This document shows positions 8,714 to 21,976 of a DNA stretch of 32,000 nt, piece by piece. The stretch comes from Promethearchaeota archaeon (GTDB lineage: Archaea > Asgardarchaeota > Lokiarchaeia > Sigyniarchaeales > SOKP01): NCBI GenBank assembly GCA_030606485.1, contig JAUWGH010000008.1, positions 30,001 through 62,000 on the forward strand. The letters are read 5' to 3'. The position numbers were made by a program, and so were the translations under genes. Each line of letters starts with the position of its first letter. Positions within the stretch are counted from its first letter, which is position 1. Below the pieces are notes generated by a model. It ran no database searches, was not told the origin of the DNA, and saw only the letters and a list, made by a program, of their open reading frames with translations.

Positions 8714-10078
8714 CTAAACAGGAGCTCCACATGCCCTACAAGCCTTATCATTTCCTTTCATGGGCGCACCGCAAATTTTGCAAAAACTTAATGTAGGTTT
8801 TGTTTTTGGAGGTTTTAATTGAGTAATCGAAGTAATTTGAGAAGTTGTTGATCCAGCCGGAGACCAATATTTTGAGGGCTCTTTTTCTTTTTGCGGTTGT
8901 TGTTTTCCTTCAATTTCTATTTCAGGCCCAAAAAAACCTCCAGGTCTTATCTTTTTCTTAATAGTTGGTGGAGGTGGGGGAGAAGGTACCAAATCTTCAA
9001 AAGTTTTTGACTTTTCACCATTTATAATTATAAGATCAGCCTTATTATCATCTGAAATTTCTGTTTCGGAAGATATTGAGAGAAATTCTTCGGAACTTGA
9101 AGAAATCGGAGTTTTAACTGCTTTACCTCTTTTTTCCTCTAAAGTTTCAATATCTTCCTCAATAAGTTTTAATTGTTCAAGATTTTTTACTTTTTCGAGA
9201 ACCATATTTTCCTCTAATTTTAATAGAGTACCACAACCTGCGCATCTAAAAATATGGATAAAACCAATATTTTTAAGCCCGGAATATTGAGCAGCGCAAC
9301 ATTCATGATATGCAGTATTGCAATTAAAACATTTGTAAGGAGTATCATTTTTATCTAAACATATTGGACAAATGGGCATATTACATATTGTGCAAGTTAA
9401 TTCTTCTCCAGGTTCTGGAGAAAGTAAATCACTAGCCAATTTTTCATAAAATAGTTTATCTTCTGGTTGTATCTGTTTCTTAATTTCTCCAACAATAACA
9501 TTTTGAATTTCTTTATTTTTTGCAAGAACATTCATAATGTTCATAAAATAATCCCTAGAATCAGCATAAAACATCCCACCAGTAGTTTCCATTGTAATTA
9601 TTTTAAGTTTTACATCATCTGCATAAAATTTTTTATCTCCTACTCTTACGATATCTATGAAAGTTGGAAGAATCTTTACTTTACTTATAAGATCAAATAA
9701 GGTTGCTTGCATTTCTTCAGGGATTTCACTTGGACTATCTGTAATTACAATAATACGATAATTTGCAACACGTTTTTTTGCTTTTTTTAGAATTTCAGAT
9801 AAAGTTAGAAACATCCCATTCTCAAATAGGCTTGTTTTATTTCTATAATTCCAGTTTTCAGATAAAATATTAATTATCTCTCCGTAAGATGTTTTATCCA
9901 TTATTAACAATGGAATAGCATCTTCTTTAAATAACAGTAAATTAAATATTGTTAAAATATTGATTTGTTTCTTTTTTTCAATTAATTCTTTAATTCCTCT
10001 GAGGATTATCTTTTTTTTTAGGAAATCTGTTGTAATATCAATGAAAATGAATACATCTTCTTTCTGGAGTTCAATCAT
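8714..10078 (-). CDS. VWA-domain protein with a central C4HC3 (PHD/RING-like) zinc finger, Pro-rich linker and C-terminal zinc ribbon
   Basis: VFIFID..., RIIVITDSP, IDIVRVG, TTGGMFY (VWA); CTIC-x4-CPIC-x9-CFNC-x4-H-x2-C-x17-CAGC; PSPPPPP; CKICG-x9-CRACG. Confidence 0.75.
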   Translation of the reverse strand: MIELQKEDVFIFIDITTDFLKKKIILRGIKELIEKKKQINILTIFNLLLFKEDAIPLLIMDKTSYGEIINILSENWNYRNKTSLFENGMFLTLSEILKKAKKRVANYRIIVITDSPSEIPEEMQATLFDLISKVKILPTFIDIVRVGDKKFYADDVKLKIITMETTGGMFYADSRDYFMNIMNVLAKNKEIQNVIVGEIKKQIQPEDKLFYEKLASDLLSPEPGEELTCTICNMPICPICLDKNDTPYKCFNCNTAYHECCAAQYSGLKNIGFIHIFRCAGCGTLLKLEENMVLEKVKNLEQLKLIEEDIETLEEKRGKAVKTPISSSSEEFLSISSETEISDDNKADLIIINGEKSKTFEDLVPSPPPPPTIKKKIRPGGFFGPEIEIEGKQQPQKEKEPSKYWSPAGSTTSQITSITQLKPPKTKPTLSFCKICGAPMKGNDKACRACGAPV

Positions 10079-12469: not shown

Positions 12470-13963
12470 ATGAAGAATAATAATGATAAAGATTTTCTAA
12501 TTCAATTATTAAATGAAATAGAACTCTCGGATGGTAGTATTGACCTTTATTTAAAAATTATTGGAAGATCCCCGTTAACATGGGAAGAGATCGCCTTAAT
12601 TATGAATACTACGAAGAAAGAACTGAATAAAAGCTTAATCGAAGAATTATTAAATAAAGGATTGTGTATTTCTAACTCAGAATCTTCTGAAGAAGATTTA
12701 ATCTACTATTACGCTATACCCCCATATCCGGCATTTTTAACTTATTATGAAAAGTTTAATGCGAAATTAAATCAAATGTCAAATGATTTACCGGATAAAA
12801 TATCTAGCATTTTTCAAGAGATTAAAAAAGAGTCAGGTTTTTTACTAAATTTAAAAAATTATATTAAGAATTTTCAAGAAGCAAAAACCACAATTGTAGG
12901 AAATTTGAGTTTAATGAAAGCTGATTATGAAGATGGAGTTACCTTGATTCCTGAATTGAATCTATTATTAAATAATTCCGGAAAATTTTATGAGATGGTA
13001 GAGAATGTTTTTAATTTACATTATCAAAATTTTCTAAAGCAAGTGGAAAATATAAAACAAGAAATTATAGATAACCTCGAGGAATTTAATCTTAAAAAAA
13101 AAAAGGATGACATAAAAGCATTAATAGATAAAATTATTGATGAAAAAATTAAAGAACTTAATGAAAGCTACAACGAAAAATTACCTGAAATTTTTAGAAA
13201 AAATTCAGAGAGCTTACAACAAAATATAACTGAAATTTCTTCCCAAGTTGAGAAGATTGAAAATGAGATTCGAATGAGTTTATTTGATTTAATGTATGAG
13301 TATGAACAAACTATTAACGATCAAGAAAAAACTTTTAATATAGTTTTAAAAAAAGAAGAAGAAAAATTTACTATTTTTGATGAATCTCTTAGCCAAAAAA
13401 TATTTGAGTTATTAGCAAGTATTTTTAATTTCATATCTTCACCAATGCAATTAAATAATCAAGCATTTCAATTTCTACTTGAAAAAACAAAACAGATACC
13501 AATTAAAATCGTAGAAAAAATTGAAAAAATAGAAATTCCAGTTTCAACTCAAGAAATTCATGAAAAAAAAGAACCGGGAGGTGAAGAGATCGATAAAATT
13601 TCGTTGTTTATTGAAGAGAAGGAAAAACTTATTAAAGATCCTGATAAAAAGGAAGAAAAATTACCATTAAAATCTATTAAAGATGAAATTCTTAAAAGTG
13701 GAGTTCTAAAGGGAGAAATGACCGAGATTGGCTCTCGATTTTTCGAAATTTTAGAAGAATTAGATATTAAAAATGGAAATGAAATTTCAAAACATTTAGA
13801 AGAATTAAATGATTATATTCTTGAAAATAAAGGCTTCTCTGTAGTTTTAAATGATATACGCCGTTGGATTACAGATCTTAAAGGTAAAGGAAAACTTGAT
13901 GAAAATTTAAAAAAAATTTTAGTAAGTCGAATGAAATCTTGGATTGAAAGATTGGCAAAATAA
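12470..13963 (+). CDS. TrmB-like winged-HTH protein with a long coiled coil and a C-terminal helical domain
   Basis: LYLKII...LTWEEIA...LIEELLNKGL...YYAIPP (TrmB-type wHTH), then roughly 250 aa of E/K/L/I-rich predicted coiled coil. Confidence 0.7.
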   Translation: MKNNNDKDFLIQLLNEIELSDGSIDLYLKIIGRSPLTWEEIALIMNTTKKELNKSLIEELLNKGLCISNSESSEEDLIYYYAIPPYPAFLTYYEKFNAKLNQMSNDLPDKISSIFQEIKKESGFLLNLKNYIKNFQEAKTTIVGNLSLMKADYEDGVTLIPELNLLLNNSGKFYEMVENVFNLHYQNFLKQVENIKQEIIDNLEEFNLKKKKDDIKALIDKIIDEKIKELNESYNEKLPEIFRKNSESLQQNITEISSQVEKIENEIRMSLFDLMYEYEQTINDQEKTFNIVLKKEEEKFTIFDESLSQKIFELLASIFNFISSPMQLNNQAFQFLLEKTKQIPIKIVEKIEKIEIPVSTQEIHEKKEPGGEEIDKISLFIEEKEKLIKDPDKKEEKLPLKSIKDEILKSGVLKGEMTEIGSRFFEILEELDIKNGNEISKHLEELNDYILENKGFSVVLNDIRRWITDLKGKGKLDENLKKILVSRMKSWIERLAK

Positions 13964-14908: not shown

Positions 14909-15601
14909 TTATTTATCATGCAAGACGTTATCTATTGATAAAACAAACCCCAACAAGATGCGTCTATCTGTTTTATTATTATGAATCCGTAAGGCGTATG
15001 TGTCCTTAAAATCAAACAGACCGCCCAAAAAAATATCACGCCATCGATCCGCTTTCTCTATCTCTGCAACTAATTCGCCAGTTTTAAAATTTGTAACTTT
15101 GTAAGACCAACCCATGAATTTTCCTTGGGCTTCATACCATTTTTCTCCATCTGGAGATTCTAAGAAAAATTTAGGGCGAAAAACACTCAAAATTGCTTTT
15201 TTGATTCTGGCGATCATATTTCCCTCTGGATCTTTTAAGTCTTGAGATCCTCTTGCACTAACAATCTTAGCATGAATTGTTGCCTGGATAGTTCCATCAA
15301 GTTCCATAAGCTCAACTTTTCTTCTAAGCGAAAATATTTTACGGTGCATCCTTCCAATAGGTTGCCCTTTTTCATCAAGAATATCGCCAGATCCCCAATC
15401 CCAGTATTTCTCTTTCAAGACATAGTAGTTTCGGTTAATGTCGAAGAGACCACCACTCGGTGCGGGTTTGGCAACACTTTCAGTTTGAGAAGGTACTGGT
15501 GCAGACTCATCAATTTTAGCACCGCATTTTTCACAAAACTTCTGACCAGGTTGTAAAGGATCACCACAACCCGGGCAAAATTTGGCTCCCATTTTATTCA
15601 A
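14909..15601 (-). CDS. Zinc-ribbon + LURP-one/scramblase (Tubby C-terminal-like) domain protein
   Basis: FCPGCG-x9-FCEKCGAKI at the N-terminus; YVLKEKYW, ILDEKGQPIG, LVAEIEK, DTYALRI, LLGFVLSID. The true start may be ATG at 15592. Confidence 0.8.
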   Translation of the reverse strand: MNKMGAKFCPGCGDPLQPGQKFCEKCGAKIDESAPVPSQTESVAKPAPSGGLFDINRNYYVLKEKYWDWGSGDILDEKGQPIGRMHRKIFSLRRKVELMELDGTIQATIHAKIVSARGSQDLKDPEGNMIARIKKAILSVFRPKFFLESPDGEKWYEAQGKFMGWSYKVTNFKTGELVAEIEKADRWRDIFLGGLFDFKDTYALRIHNNKTDRRILLGFVLSIDNVLHDK

Positions 15602-15947: not shown

Positions 15948-17054
15948 ATGATTGAATACAATGAATTCATGGCTTTTGAATTATTGGATGATGGAACTAA
16001 AAATGAACTGGATACATCCCCTAAAGAATTAGGTTCAATTTTGAATCCTAACCAAGTATTTGTGATAGTGAGGGAAGATCTACGCCGTATTTTTATTTGG
16101 AAAGGCTCAAAATCTCCAGTTCGAAAGCGGTTTATTTCTTCACGAGTTGCCCAAGAACTCCAAAACGAGCTAATAAAATCAGCAGGATTTCATCGATGTA
16201 TAATAAAATCAATTGATCAAGGGGATGAATTAGTTGAGTTTTTGAATGCATTTGGTCTAGAATCGATGGAAGTAACTGAAAGATTACCAGATATGAGATA
16301 TATTAGAAATATTGAAAGGGATGGAATGGCTCAAGGCATAGTAATGGATGCAACTCCTGTTTCGAAAAAAATAGAAAGTAATGATTATTATTCCCCTGCT
16401 TTAGGTATTTTTGATGGGAATACAATGGAATCTGCTTTAGTATCTTCTGGTATTAAACCTCAAACTCCTAAAAAAGAAACTTTTAAACCTATTCCAATAA
16501 CTCCATCAAGTATAAGTCCTGGATATATTACTAGAAAACCATCTTTTTCTCAAGATCAAGTTAAAAAAATTTTAAATGAAATCTTAAAAAATGATATTCC
16601 AGATGGATATAAACGGCAAAATATCATAATGGGAAACTATTTATATGGAGTTGTCTCTAAGATGACCACAGTTCTTGGAAAGGAGGTTGAGGATACAGAA
16701 TGGGAAAGAATTAAAAAATTTCCCAATGAGGTAATTGAACTAGAAAACAATAAGATAAGGGCTTATATTGATGAAAAACGTGCTATAATAAAAGGGATTG
16801 AAGTGTTAACATTAGATAAAAAGACTCCAATAAGATCTAAAAAAATAGCAACCAGAACTCCAGTAAAAAAAACAATCACTAGAACACCGGCTAAAAAAAC
16901 AACTGCAAGAACCACATCTAAAAAGGCTATATCTAAGACATCGAGTAAAAAGAAAGACACTTTAGGAACAACTAAAGATAATCAAACTAAACCTAAAATG
17001 ATAAAAGTTGCTGGAAGGACACTTCCCAAAATTCCAAAAGCAGATGATGAATAA
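15948..17054 (+). CDS. One-domain gelsolin-like protein with extended C-terminus (1DGelX-like) and Lys/Thr-rich tail
   Basis: LNPNQVFVI...RRIFIWKGSKSPVRKRFISSRVAQEL...IDQGDELVEFL matches the gelsolin-repeat consensus (F/Y-x-W-x-G, QGxE, F). Confidence 0.8.
   Translation: MIEYNEFMAFELLDDGTKNELDTSPKELGSILNPNQVFVIVREDLRRIFIWKGSKSPVRKRFISSRVAQELQNELIKSAGFHRCIIKSIDQGDELVEFLNAFGLESMEVTERLPDMRYIRNIERDGMAQGIVMDATPVSKKIESNDYYSPALGIFDGNTMESALVSSGIKPQTPKKETFKPIPITPSSISPGYITRKPSFSQDQVKKILNEILKNDIPDGYKRQNIIMGNYLYGVVSKMTTVLGKEVEDTEWERIKKFPNEVIELENNKIRAYIDEKRAIIKGIEVLTLDKKTPIRSKKIATRTPVKKTITRTPAKKTTARTTSKKAISKTSSKKKDTLGTTKDNQTKPKMIKVAGRTLPKIPKADDE
16839..16946 (+). repeat. Four imperfect 27-bp (9-aa) tandem repeats in the gelsolin tail
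   Basis: KKIATRTPV / KKTITRTPA / KKTTARTTS / KKAISKTSS, followed by KK. Confidence 0.8.
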
Positions 17055-17129: not shown

Positions 17130-19292
17130 TTAAGATAATTTCGCTTTCCATTCTTTGATTTTTTTGGTAATTTTGTCGTGAGATTCACCAACAATGGTTT
17201 TTTCTCCTAGATCTTTAAACTCTCTTGCAAGTTGTCCAATTTCATGAATAAAGGGGCCAACTCTCGCAATGTTAGCAATAAAGTCTCTCATTTTTTCAAT
17301 TATATTGGCAACATCCACTGATTTTAATCCAGGCGTAATTTTTTTCTCAAGATTAATAATTTCATCAAAAATTTGTGATTTAATTGAGAATGAAAGGTTT
17401 TCCGCAAATGAACCTATTGATGATTCAGGTGTACTACTTACTATTGGTTCAGTCTTTTCTTCAGGCTTAGAAATAGTGTCTTTTCTTCCTTCAACAATAA
17501 CTACTGGTTCATATCTTGGGTATTCACCGCTACCAGAACAGTGATATTTGATCTGCAATGCAGTATCTGCTTTAATCTCTGCAATTCTTACTACTAATTC
17601 AGATTCATTTTCAATCTTATTTAACTCATATTTCAATTCCATTGGAGAAAAGCTTATTAATTCAAAATTTACTGGAATTTTATCCTTAAATAGAATATTT
17701 TCCAATTCAACATTTCCTTGATTTTGGAGTCGAATACTCACAATAAATTCTCCCGTTACACTACCTGGTTTAATGCTTTTAAGAGTTTTGAACTTTCTAG
17801 CAATATATTTAATTCTTATCTCCGGTGTTTCACTTGGTGCAATAATATAAGGTTTTCCTTCAATTTCTGTGTTTAATTGAACAGTAATCGGAATTTGATA
17901 TGATTTATCAGGTTTTGGATTTCTAGCAATTATTGGATATGATATTTCTAAAGTACTATCTGATGATAAGTCATTTGCCATATTAAATAGTTCAATTTCT
18001 ATTCTATGAGATTTTGTTAAATCCTTATCATCTGGTGTAATTCTAAATACTTTAACATATTCATTACCGAAAATTCCTTTTAATTCTCCGCCAGTTTTTG
18101 CAAAGATTTTAATATTATTTAGGTCTGGAGGTTCAAAATCATCAGCTATTTCATCTGTAATCAGTACTTTATCGATTGGAGCAGATCCTTTATTAAAAAG
18201 AGTGTTAACAATTTCCATATCAGTATTTGCATAAGCTCCTACCTCATTTGGTTTAATATCTTTTGAAACTTCTGCCCGAAGTACGGGATAATATAATGGT
18301 TCTTTATATATAGTTCCCTCAACTCGTTTTATCGCTGTAAATAAAGTAGTAAATTCGAAAGTTGGTTCTAATTGAGGGACTTCTTTAGATTCAACAATGA
18401 AATCATAATCCCATGCTTGATCTCTGTTTAAAATCTTTCCGGGTGCTTGGGATACTACAATTTCTTTACCAGTAATAATATTATGTTCTACTCTTACATC
18501 ATTTAACTTTACTTGAAATTCAGATTCATTAATAAATTCAACATTACAATCCCATACCCCTGGTTTACTACCTTCATCCCTTGTTACTCCACTCATCGAA
18601 TCTGTTATTGCAACTATATCTGGATCAATCATTGTTAATATTCTATTGTTTACTAGATATGTAGCACTTATTGCTCCAAGTGGTTGCATTTCTACGGAAT
18701 TTGCTAATGCAATACAATTTACTATTAATTCAGCCGATTGACCAACTCCTAAAGAGTTTAATTCCCAAAATATTTTATTCGAACCTTCCTCTTCTTTCAT
18801 TGAAGCTGTTCCATTATTAGGTGGAACGATCTCAATATCTTTAAGTATAGGTGGAATCTCTTTAATAAGTTTAATATTGATAATATCTCCACTTATTTGA
18901 TTTGTTAAATGGATTTTTAACTGACATTTAGTGTCTTGAGCAAAAAAAAGCGTGTTATTTTCTCGATCTGAAAAATCTGATAAAGTATCGAATTTTTCAG
19001 CAATTGTTAAAAGAGGTTCTTTTATGTTAGAAATTGTATAATCGGAAGAAAAATCCTCTAACGGGTCTAGAGTATCTATTTTTATTTCACGTGCAGAAAA
19101 TGAAGTTTTTACCGTTTCTTTTAAATCACATGTAATATTCCACAATCGACTTTTATCTGACGGATTTTTTATAATAAATTTGCCGTTTCCACTTATTTCC
19201 TTCACATTTCCTAAATCATTAAGAACGACATTTTCTTTTTCGGTTATATCTATTACGATTAATAAATTCTTTTTTATTTCTATATCACTCAT
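17130..19292 (-). CDS. Large beta-sandwich protein: N-terminal mu-homology-like domain, further Ig-like modules and a C-terminal helical domain
   Basis: IDITEKENVVLNDLGNVKEISGNG, NIKLIKEIPP, NGTA, NKIFWEL and AISATY align by eye to the delta-COP/AP-mu MHD; later N-x-G...D-x-I-P/A Ig-like motifs. Confidence 0.65.
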   Translation of the reverse strand: MSDIEIKKNLLIVIDITEKENVVLNDLGNVKEISGNGKFIIKNPSDKSRLWNITCDLKETVKTSFSAREIKIDTLDPLEDFSSDYTISNIKEPLLTIAEKFDTLSDFSDRENNTLFFAQDTKCQLKIHLTNQISGDIINIKLIKEIPPILKDIEIVPPNNGTASMKEEEGSNKIFWELNSLGVGQSAELIVNCIALANSVEMQPLGAISATYLVNNRILTMIDPDIVAITDSMSGVTRDEGSKPGVWDCNVEFINESEFQVKLNDVRVEHNIITGKEIVVSQAPGKILNRDQAWDYDFIVESKEVPQLEPTFEFTTLFTAIKRVEGTIYKEPLYYPVLRAEVSKDIKPNEVGAYANTDMEIVNTLFNKGSAPIDKVLITDEIADDFEPPDLNNIKIFAKTGGELKGIFGNEYVKVFRITPDDKDLTKSHRIEIELFNMANDLSSDSTLEISYPIIARNPKPDKSYQIPITVQLNTEIEGKPYIIAPSETPEIRIKYIARKFKTLKSIKPGSVTGEFIVSIRLQNQGNVELENILFKDKIPVNFELISFSPMELKYELNKIENESELVVRIAEIKADTALQIKYHCSGSGEYPRYEPVVIVEGRKDTISKPEEKTEPIVSSTPESSIGSFAENLSFSIKSQIFDEIINLEKKITPGLKSVDVANIIEKMRDFIANIARVGPFIHEIGQLAREFKDLGEKTIVGESHDKITKKIKEWKAKLS

Positions 19293-19489: not shown

Positions 19490-19918
19490 ATGATACTTGA
19501 AGAAACTAATGATATAAGCTTAATCCGTAAGGTAGATTGTATCAGACTCCCTGTATCAGACCTTGAGGATGGTCTTAAATTCTACCGAGATTCCCTCGGT
19601 CACCGACTCAAATGGCGAACAGAAAGTGCTGCAGGGCTTCAACTTCCTGAAAATGATGCGGAGTTAGTTATTCACACCGAACCTGAGGATCCCGAAACGG
19701 ATTTACTCGTAGACTCTGCTGAGGTGGCAGCTAAACGTTTTGTTGATGCAGGAGGGACGGTGGTAGTGGGTCCTTTCGATATTCAAATTGGTAAGTGTGT
19801 CATCGTTAAGGATCCATGGGACAATAAGTTAGTATTACTTGATATTAGCAAAGGTGCATTAATTACAGATTCGGAAGGAAATGTAATCGGCAACGAAGAC
19901 ATCATTGATCCAACATGA
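19490..19918 (+). CDS. VOC family (glyoxalase/bleomycin resistance) protein
   Basis: VDCIRLPVSDLEDGLKFYRDSLG...GPFDIQIGKCVIVKDPWDNKLVLL. Confidence 0.85.
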   Translation: MILEETNDISLIRKVDCIRLPVSDLEDGLKFYRDSLGHRLKWRTESAAGLQLPENDAELVIHTEPEDPETDLLVDSAEVAAKRFVDAGGTVVVGPFDIQIGKCVIVKDPWDNKLVLLDISKGALITDSEGNVIGNEDIIDPT

Positions 19919-20240: not shown

Positions 20241-21089
20241 TTGAAAGTAAATGATCTAAATACAGATGGAAATCAAAATATCCTTGAAAAGGATATATTA
20301 GAAATTATCAGGAATTACAATAAATTAATGATGGAGGGAATAACAGGTCCTGATTGTACAGACCCAAATATTTGCCATGGAGATTGCTGCTCTATATTTA
20401 TCGATGTCCCAAAAATATTAGCTGAAGAAATTATAAGACAAGGATTAGGTAAAGAAAAAGATTTTATAAGAGGAGATGTTTTTTCATTTCAAATACGGAT
20501 TGATGATAATACAGGAAAGTGCGCATTTTTTGATAAAAAGCTTAATGGATGTAAGCTCCATTCTACAGATCTTAAACCACCTCAGTGTTGGATTTACCCA
20601 ACCAATTTTGATAATTTTGAAAATAAAAATATTAAATGTAAAAGAGCAGATGGTTGGAGAATAATTTCGCCTGAAAAGGTCATAAAAGCCGAAACTTTAC
20701 TCCAAATGTATAGTAATTGGAGCCAAGCAGAATTTGTTATTGAATTGAAAAAAATAAAACACCGTTTAAAATTCAAATTCAATGAAAAATCTTTAAAAGA
20801 GAGACTTCAAGAAATAAAACCTTGTGAGTTTGCTGGATTCAAAGACTCATGGAATTATTTTGAGACACTTCAAGCAGAAGGATTTTCACTACAAATGAAA
20901 AAATATTGTGAAAAATTTAATCCAAGATGTCCTCTGCTTCCAGATAATTACTTTGATTGTAATAATATTTGTGAAGTAGTCGCAAATAATATAATAAAAT
21001 TCTTTAATAGTGTCTTAGATTCATATTTAGAAAAATTTGGATCTAATAATGGAGATTATCCATTAATGAAAATTAGCGATTTTTTTTAG
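20241..21089 (+). CDS. YkgJ-like zinc/iron-chelating Cys-cluster protein, extended
   Basis: CTDPNICHGDCC, GKCAFFD...GCKLH...KPPQCWIYP, plus C-terminal Cys pairs; TTG start. Confidence 0.65.
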   Translation: MKVNDLNTDGNQNILEKDILEIIRNYNKLMMEGITGPDCTDPNICHGDCCSIFIDVPKILAEEIIRQGLGKEKDFIRGDVFSFQIRIDDNTGKCAFFDKKLNGCKLHSTDLKPPQCWIYPTNFDNFENKNIKCKRADGWRIISPEKVIKAETLLQMYSNWSQAEFVIELKKIKHRLKFKFNEKSLKERLQEIKPCEFAGFKDSWNYFETLQAEGFSLQMKKYCEKFNPRCPLLPDNYFDCNNICEVVANNIIKFFNSVLDSYLEKFGSNNGDYPLMKISDFF

Positions 21090-21616: not shown

Positions 21617-21976
21617 TTGGATTTAGTAGATAAAAACCTGCGGGAATTAGCAAAAACATTGTTTTCTGCGAATTATCGATATGTAGATGAAGAACAAACA
21701 TTTCGAGGTAAATCAAAAAAAATTTGGAAATTTGATGCATTAATATTAGACAATGGAGGAAAATTTGGAGTCTTTATTCGAGATTGGAAACGAGAGATTT
21801 CAATAACTCAGATCCGTCAATTGCACAAAGCTTGCAAGGATGTTGAAGATATTGAGGGTGGAGTTATGATTTGTAGTAAATCTAGTGAATTTTCAGAAAA
21901 ATACGGAAAAAATAACGGCATACAGGTGTTAGACCGCGGGCAGATAATATCAAAATTGAGAATACAATTTTATTAA
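21617..21976 (+). CDS. Mrr-like / PD-(D/E)XK restriction-endonuclease-fold small protein
   Basis: FRGKSKKIWKFDALI...GVFIRDWKREISITQIRQL...GGVMIC...GIQVLDR; TTG start. Confidence 0.65.
   Translation: MDLVDKNLRELAKTLFSANYRYVDEEQTFRGKSKKIWKFDALILDNGGKFGVFIRDWKREISITQIRQLHKACKDVEDIEGGVMICSKSSEFSEKYGKNNGIQVLDRGQIISKLRIQFY

Follow-up and report, generated by a model that had tools for sequence, protein, structure and literature searches.

A 720-residue Asgard archaeal protein with a predicted stand-alone mu-homology domain, DUF11/CLIPPER-type sandwiches and a C-terminal helical bundle

The genome of a Promethearchaeota archaeon of Lokiarchaeia type (GCA_030606485.1) contains, in a 32,000-nucleotide stretch of contig JAUWGH010000008.1 (positions 30,001 to 62,000; hereafter the window, with positions counted from its first letter), a gene for a 720-residue protein that is predicted to begin with a divergent mu-homology domain and to continue into several further beta-sandwiches. 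The gene, delimited from the list of open reading frames and the translation, lies on the minus strand at 17130..19292, with its stop codon at 17130-17132; the window is AT-rich (GC content, approximately 0.23-0.33), and the genome carries a single copy. We propose, with a probability of roughly 80%, that the product is a soluble cytoplasmic scaffold of Asgard archaea in which a stand-alone mu-homology domain is combined with DUF11/CLIPPER sandwiches and a helical bundle. Proteins of this kind have already been published, and the present study adds a fold for a copy that is invisible to Pfam, the full domain architecture, a near-universal spread and a tie to DUF11.

The full-length protein was modelled with AlphaFold2 from an Asgard-only alignment without templates, reaching a predicted local distance difference test (pLDDT) score of 89.1. 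The model is all-beta at residues 9-600, disordered at residues 605-624 and folded into a five-helix bundle at residues 626-719. A model of residues 1-345 reached a pLDDT of 93.0 and a predicted template-modelling (pTM) score of 0.82, and the best 50 matches of these residues in a Foldseek search of the PDB were all mu-homology domains (E-values, 1.2e-11 to 1.4e-9; target template-modelling (TM) scores, 0.33-0.67). VIA-align, run independently of Foldseek against 48,161 PDB representative chains, also placed mu-homology domains at all of ranks 1 to 10, with Z-scores of 13.1-16.2, a root mean square deviation (rmsd) of 2.5-3.4 Å and 211-229 of about 250 residues aligned. The best match was mu2 (9fiw; Z 16.2, 229 residues aligned, rmsd 3.2 Å), and the others included mu3A (Z 16.0), mu4 (15.9), mu1 (15.2), delta-COP of bovine and yeast origin (15.1 and 13.1), SGIP1 (14.9) and Syp1 (13.2). 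The first unrelated chain had a Z-score of 11.2 with 129 residues aligned, and the chains that came next were pilin, CLIPPER and macroglobulin sandwiches with Z-scores of at most 11.2 and no more than 146 residues aligned.

The VIA-align alignments span the whole target domain, for example residues 168-435 of mu2, cover 84-91% of the mu-homology domain and begin at model residues 7-10, opposite residue 168 of mu2 and residue 271 of delta-COP. As about 90% of the mu-homology domain is aligned in sequence order, both subdomains and the connectivity of subdomain B within subdomain A are present in the model, which shows the two-sandwich all-beta fold, with B nested in A. In the ESM Atlas, eukaryotic PF00928 clusters matched as well (TM 0.58-0.60, 227-236 residues aligned). 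As modelled, residues 8 to approximately 335 are a true mu-homology domain, albeit a divergent one. The original prediction had proposed such a coat- or adaptor-type fold from a series of strings, NLLIVIDITEKEN..., KEPLLTI, CQLKIHL...NIKLIKEIPP, NKIFWELNSLGVGQ and LGAISATY, all of which occur in residues 8-221 (18630-19271, minus strand, translated). The fold class was borne out by the model of residues 1-345 and by the top ranks of both structure searches, and superposition was not restricted to generic DUF11/Ig sandwiches, nor was the split A/B topology missing. For the D-x-x-E-x-x-N...GNV...G spacing, for which an exact match to mu1 had been claimed, support comes from structure, in that the alignments begin at residues 7-10; the HMMER score of the segment was negative.

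Sequence comparison supports the mu-homology domain at the level of the family, and searches with the single protein (Pfam, NCBIfam and phmmer against the PDB) returned nothing specific to mu-homology domains. A word-indexed search identified 231 full-length homologues at E ≤ 1e-3, the best 120 of which are mostly about 700 amino acids long and 42-48% identical, and an exhaustive HMMER scan yielded 288 cluster representatives. The named homologues all belong to Asgard archaea (Promethearchaeota, Lokiarchaeota, Thor-, Hod- and Hermodarchaeota). PF00928 was matched at E ≤ 0.01 by 19 of the 50 aligned homologues, and three homologues, P0120 (36.7 bits), P0146 (40.9 bits) and P0239 (39.7 bits), exceeded its gathering score of 31.6 bits. 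The alignment of P0146 covers positions 12-236 of the 259 positions of the PF00928 profile, and those of P0146 and P0150 both run from position 12 to positions 234-236, subdomain A included.

Furthermore, a profile made from 93 diverse copies of residues 1-248 was compared with 177,635 PDB sequences and matched 26 of them at E ≤ 1. Twenty-one of these matches were mu subunits of adaptor protein (AP) complexes, with best E-values of 1.8e-4 for mu3A, 0.008 for mu2 and 0.04 for mu1; two others were delta-COP and two were gamma-adaptin ears, and no solved DUF11/CLIPPER chain was matched among these PDB sequences. The significant part of the mu3A alignment corresponds to residues 118-220. The family profile pairs residues 107-220 with residues 279-396 of mu3A and 303-404 of mu2, and also with mu1, and it matches the CQLKIHL...IKEIPP strand pair and the tryptophan of IFWEL to the equivalent strands of mu3A. 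Judged from these profiles, the mu-homology likeness is beyond chance for the family and not for the single 720-residue sequence. As neither PF00928 nor the PDB gave a significant match with the sequence itself, the membership of the protein rests on family profiles and the predicted structure.

The domains follow one another in the order of a mu-homology domain with an extra sandwich, two or three DUF11/CLIPPER sandwiches, a linker of about 20 residues and a bundle of about 95 residues, all encoded on the minus strand. The N-terminal part of subdomain A (residues 8-105; 18978..19271) comprises six strands according to the secondary structure of the model and the structural alignments, and contains the residues N43 and W51, which are invariant across the family. 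D15, the putative counterpart of the tyrosine-binding aspartate of mu2, is the majority residue of the family at a conservation below 90%. Subdomain B (residues 106-222; 18627..18977), a seven-stranded sandwich placed by the profile alignment to mu chains, contains the invariant residues N131 and W176. Two strands, at residues 225-229 and 232-240 of the model, lie in the segment after subdomain B (residues 223-245; 18558..18626), which probably represents the return of the chain into subdomain A. The most conserved block of the family extends over approximately residues 228-262, in which E240, P244, W247, N255 and S257 are at least 90% conserved. A seven-stranded beta-sandwich (residues 246-335; 18288..18557) is packed rigidly on the mu-homology domain in the model, and it is considered extra relative to the eukaryotic domains because about 95 of the model residues 7-332 are left unaligned.

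The middle beta region (residues 336-500; 17793..18287) is predicted to be all-beta with a pLDDT of about 90 and to hold at least one further DUF11-like sandwich. The C-terminal DUF11/CLIPPER domain (residues 501-603; 17484..17792) was assigned from a TIGR01451 match and from PF01345 matches in homologues; a weak match to a gamma-adaptin ear profile at residues 507-578 (E 0.008) is read as general Ig-fold likeness. It is followed by a disordered linker rich in Ser, Thr, Pro and Glu (residues 604-625; 17418..17483), with a pLDDT below 50 at residues 605-624, and by the C-terminal bundle (residues 626-720; 17133..17417), whose five helices have a pLDDT of about 90. This helical tail was found in the 687-720-residue proteins of Loki type and is missing from the 575-600-residue forms of other classes, the matches of which stop near residue 600. 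The bundle, which has no Pfam family and no usable look-alike in the ESM Atlas, is a lineage-specific accessory module.

The protein shares with the mu subunits of AP-1 to AP-5 and with delta-COP of coat protein complex I (COPI) the two-subdomain all-beta fold with B inserted in A, and it shares with AP mu the conserved tryptophan of the W-x-I/L strand. It differs from AP mu and delta-COP in its acidic surface and in what follows the mu-homology domain, namely an additional sandwich of about 95 residues, DUF11 domains and a helical tail. The absence of an N-terminal longin domain and the presence of additional Ig-like modules, both anticipated by the original prediction, were confirmed: the chain enters the mu-homology domain at residue 8, and no PF01217 match was found in the 720-residue protein or in the N-terminally extended homologues examined. 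Because it lacks the N-terminal longin domain, the protein is not a mu or delta subunit. Muniscins (FCHo1/2, SGIP1 and Syp1) and stonins resemble it in organization, as they also carry a mu-homology domain without a longin domain on a single chain, with a disordered linker joining a helical module to the mu-homology part. In muniscins, however, the mu-homology domain is not N-terminal as it is here, no DUF11 sandwiches stand between it and the helical part, and the helical module is an F-BAR dimer instead of a five-helix bundle of about 95 residues. The reversed domain order and the lack of a BAR-type domain exclude the protein from the muniscins.

The domain organization, which the original prediction did not recognize, belongs to a kind that had already been listed. 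Eme et al. (2023; Nature 618:992, PMC10307638) included 44 Asgard Adap_comp_sub (PF00928) candidates in their candidate table of eukaryotic signature proteins (ESPs). Section 4.3.1 of their supplement describes the C-terminal domain of the mu subunit in most Asgard phyla as a stand-alone domain that, in the account given there, was never clearly found in one protein with a longin domain, and ascribes its sparse spread to "high divergence"; the survey was based on Pfam matches. Compared by eye, a fragment of the first candidate of the table, a protein from Jordarchaeia, carries the N-terminal signature of our family, in which the N and W of the N-P-S ... R-x-W-N block are invariant and are present in this fragment too; a second fragment resembles the region of the extra sandwich. 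By these sequence signatures, the 720-residue protein is a member of the published Asgard Adap_comp_sub family. As far as the family is described in the table and the section cited, both are stand-alone mu C-terminal domains without a longin domain, and they differ in that the copy in the window is invisible to PF00928. Beyond Eme et al. (2023), our literature search found no paper linking mu homology with archaea or Asgard archaea and none on the fold, architecture or function of the Asgard Adap_comp_sub family, and the mu-homology domain is not discussed in structure-based ESP surveys.

A Kyte-Doolittle scan of the whole chain revealed no membrane-like segment, anchor or signal peptide in the 720-residue protein, the highest 19-residue mean being 1.18. 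In eukaryotes, the mu-homology domains of AP mu, delta-COP, muniscins and stonins recognize short peptide motifs in cargo and in accessory proteins, with a YxxPhi site in mu2 and WxxF and di-Trp sites in mu2, delta-COP and muniscins. By analogy with them, the protein may serve as a hub of protein-protein interactions: short linear motifs of its partners would be captured by strand addition on the edges of the sandwiches, and the C-terminal helical module would dock or oligomerize the protein. Such a motif-binding scaffold function is what the analogy suggests, and a role in membrane trafficking is possible.

Several observations weigh against this interpretation. Similarity to PF00928 is visible with HMMER in homologues, but the protein itself has no match to this profile at E ≤ 10; phmmer found no match for it in the PDB, and the PF00928 profile found none in the whole genome of the window. 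In the structural alignments, the identity of the protein to mu-homology domains is 7-14%, and the sequence matches of its family to mu chains centre on subdomain B, the part that also matches DUF11. All its beta domains are net acidic, whereas mu2 has basic patches that bind phosphatidylinositol 4,5-bisphosphate (PIP2). Among the 24 loci compared, which represent many families, no neighbour was conserved throughout and no partner was shared across classes. The only longin-type match in the genome of the window is a longin-Arf fusion of 290 residues. The gene context is thus uninformative and lends no support to a trafficking role, and a coat function of the 720-residue protein is not implied by the present results.

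In a stronger version of the scaffold reading, the protein would correspond to the medium subunit of a primordial adaptor or coat complex with several subunits, and would sort membrane cargo together with separately encoded longin (sigma/mu-N-like) and HEAT/adaptin-like proteins and an Arf-like GTPase. All five domain types of the AP complexes occur in Asgard archaea as separate proteins, according to the supplement cited (PMC10307638), and the genome of the window itself encodes candidates for such partners. The longin-Arf fusion (contig 2, 121466-122338, plus strand; equivalent to L013:1498-2370) combines a longin domain at residues 1-126 (PF01217, 21.1 bits, just under the cut-off; Fuz_longin_1, E 5e-5) with an Arf-family GTPase part (E 1e-17), but it is unlinked to the mu-homology gene. 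Long HEAT proteins of the same genome match Adaptin_N; these matches are considered generic HEAT repeats because they also occur in the Bacillus subtilis and methanogen control genomes. An Arf/RagA-type GTPase gene lies two genes away in one related contig, but neither the window nor the 24 loci show a gene of these kinds in linkage with the mu-homology gene, and none of the homologues examined is fused to a longin domain. We therefore regard the primordial adaptor as an unlikely alternative.

It is still less probable that the protein is an ordinary DUF11/CLIPPER Ig-repeat protein, with a convergent likeness to mu-homology domains and with PF00928 matches that reflect the Ig-fold similarity of subdomain B. 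This explanation draws on a clear kinship with DUF11, which is also part of the preferred reading. In the 720-residue protein, a TIGR01451 repeat of NCBIfam was found at residues 519-549 (27.2 bits; cut-off, 24 bits), and PF01345 (DUF11) scored just below its cut-off of 24.6 bits at residues 121-198 (23.4 bits, E 7.7e-5); PF01345 is present in 49 of the 50 homologues (best E, 5e-16). Internal repeats were compared with hhalign between segments of the family alignment, with the C-terminal DUF11 domain (residues 498-603) as the reference. The probability was 97.2% (E 3.5e-11) for subdomain B (residues 106-222), 93.9% (E 1.5e-7) for residues 336-425 and 76% (E 2.2e-5) for the extra sandwich (residues 243-335). 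By profile comparison, subdomain B and the DUF11 sandwiches of the same chain are accordingly paralogues, with residues 106-222, 336-425 and 498-603 being of the DUF11 type. The extra sandwich contains the segment WDCNVEF...LNDVRV (residues 247-267), which had been suggested to belong to a second subdomain B; the segment does lie in another sandwich, but this sandwich is not a copy of subdomain B, because hhalign gave a probability of only 1.8% between the two.

The convergence explanation also fits the observations that the same residues of P0146, P0161 and P0239 score on both PF00928 and PF01345, that the majority of the significant sequence alignments to mu chains are confined to subdomain B, and that the full-length model retrieved generic multi-Ig proteins, integrins and PrgB among them, first in Foldseek. 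However, it does not account for structural alignments that take in both parts of subdomain A, for the clear gap in Z-score and aligned length that separates the mu-homology domains from single-sandwich matches, for the inclusion of subdomain A in the PF00928 alignments of P0146 and P0150, or for a profile of residues 1-248 that retrieves mu subunits and no solved DUF11/CLIPPER chain. The solved CLIPPER domain 9ifr can be aligned with the model (Z 10.2, 120 residues). Typical DUF11/CLIPPER proteins are secreted or surface proteins with independent sandwiches in tandem, whereas the 720-residue protein has no export signal and one of its sandwiches is nested in another. A cell-surface or envelope protein, such as an adhesin or an S-layer-associated protein exported by an unrecognized route, is very improbable, since the chain has no signal peptide, membrane segment or anchor, the homologues share its leaderless N-terminus or carry soluble extensions and the C-terminus is a soluble helical bundle, even though secreted proteins are the usual carriers of DUF11, CARDB and CLIPPER domains and bacterial clusters with such domains are weak structural neighbours in the ESM Atlas.

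The scaffold reading thus remains the preferred one, and the family to which it applies is widespread. When a profile of residues 1-345 was searched against 201 sampled Asgard genomes, the family was present in 167 of them (83%), usually over the whole profile, including 73 of the 86 high-quality genomes and 54 of the 59 genera. It was not found in the searched genomes of three Asgard families, one of which has genome sizes of about 1.3-1.4 Mb. Three to six family matches were counted in other Loki genera, compared with one in the genome of the window. A 2026 structural survey (PMC12962969) described the Asgard homologues of adaptor proteins as patchy, in line with the sparse spread reported in the supplement of PMC10307638. 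For the Asgard Adap_comp_sub family, this patchiness looks like an artefact of detection, because a family-specific profile finds the family in so many of the sampled genera.

One paralogue subfamily (alignment A4: P0146, P0150, P0152, P0172, P0173, P0181, P0186 and P0190; loci L006 and L007) occurs in Helarchaeota, Sigynarchaeum and other Asgard metagenome-assembled genomes. Its members have a conserved N-terminal domain of about 90 residues that belongs to no known family, followed by a low-complexity linker, and they provide the strongest PF00928 scores; a profile of this subfamily found no mu match in the PDB. The N-terminal extensions of other homologues are polyproline tracts or HEAT-like helices and are soluble. 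Distant members (P0159, P0175, P0191, P0206 and P0263) carry N-terminal polyproline and acidic tracts of 100-380 residues with repeats of the type A-P-P-A-P-P-G-x-P-P-M-P. In the ESM Atlas, a cluster of 52 members, putatively from Thermoplasmatota by its main label, matches residues 6-345 (TM 0.83, 327 residues aligned); DUF11 is present in 100% of its members and AF2028_C in 23%. The mu-homology domain with the extra sandwich may thus also occur outside Asgard archaea.

Near-identical DNA to the window is present in cold-seep and marine-sediment metagenomes. In a metatranscriptome library, one contig of 171 bases matches positions 18690-18860 with one mismatch, and a second RNA run contained no contig inside the mu-homology gene; the RNA contig is a weak hint of transcription.

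The mu-homology gene stands alone. On one side of it, a gelsolin-like protein of 368 residues is encoded convergently on the plus strand (15948-17054), with 75 bp between the two stop codons. It matches PF00626 below the cut-off at residues 32-99 (E 0.011) and has a long tail rich in Lys, Thr and Ser. We read no functional link into this neighbour, because other Loki genera have an unrelated gene in its place, which encodes a protein of 116 residues. On the other side, a glyoxalase-family gene (19490-19918) is divergent from the mu-homology gene, and genes for a CxxCxxCC (PF03692) protein (20241-21089) and a 119-residue Mrr_cat-like protein (21617-21976) are located divergently upstream on the plus strand. 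The order of the latter two is kept in three other genomes of Loki type, with 46% and 53% identity to the copies at locus L002, and in the window the glyoxalase-family gene is inserted between this pair and the mu-homology gene. Among the 24 loci, the CxxCxxCC protein and an Mrr_cat-like protein of 119-122 residues were neighbours in Loki only. In seven loci of other families (L022-L026, L034 and L035), a gene of about 230 codons for a metallo-beta-lactamase-fold protein, absent from the window, is located 40-147 bp upstream on the same strand (PF13483; scans of two of the copies gave E 7e-16 to 5e-23), and the two genes may form an operon in those lineages. A cluster of DUF87 ATPase genes 2-5 kb from the mu-homology gene looks like plain synteny.

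Some other proteins of the window were also characterized. A 497-residue protein (12470-13963, plus strand) has a weakly TrmB-like N-terminus and a long coiled-coil middle; six full-length homologues (40-99% identity) and four weaker matches (about 24-25% identity over about half of the query) were found. In hhalign, a C-terminal stretch of roughly 75 residues pairs with the helical tail of the 720-residue protein (57.5%, E 1e-4, 73 collinear columns), and BLASTP between the two was not significant; the two proteins may share a C-terminal module. A CDP-alcohol phosphatidyltransferase gene (PF01066; 13979-14770, minus strand) adjoins a gene for a zinc-ribbon protein with a LURP-one-related/scramblase-like domain (PF04525, E 6.5e-10; 14909-15601, minus strand), and the two form a lipid-related pair near the gelsolin-like and mu-homology genes. 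A 454-residue protein (8714-10078, minus strand) without a Pfam match at E ≤ 0.001 contains several zinc-ribbon-like motifs of the form Cys-x-x-Cys, a run of polyproline and a middle part rich in Ser and Glu.

Clathrin-adaptor and COPI coats read their cargo through mu-homology domains, so that relatives of these domains in archaea are relevant to the origin of vesicle trafficking. It is possible, though doubtful, that the Asgard family represents the prokaryotic stock of all eukaryotic mu-homology domains (AP mu, delta-COP, muniscins, stonins and TSET) and has kept a record of how the domain arose, a DUF11/CLIPPER sandwich of a cytoplasmic multi-sandwich protein having become nested in its neighbour and the fusion with a longin domain having come later. 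Should the Thermoplasmatota relatives prove real, the module would be older than Asgard archaea, and its presence alone would not be a sign of vesicle trafficking. The identity of subdomain B as a DUF11-type repeat offers a specific path, open to testing, by which the mu-homology domain may have originated.

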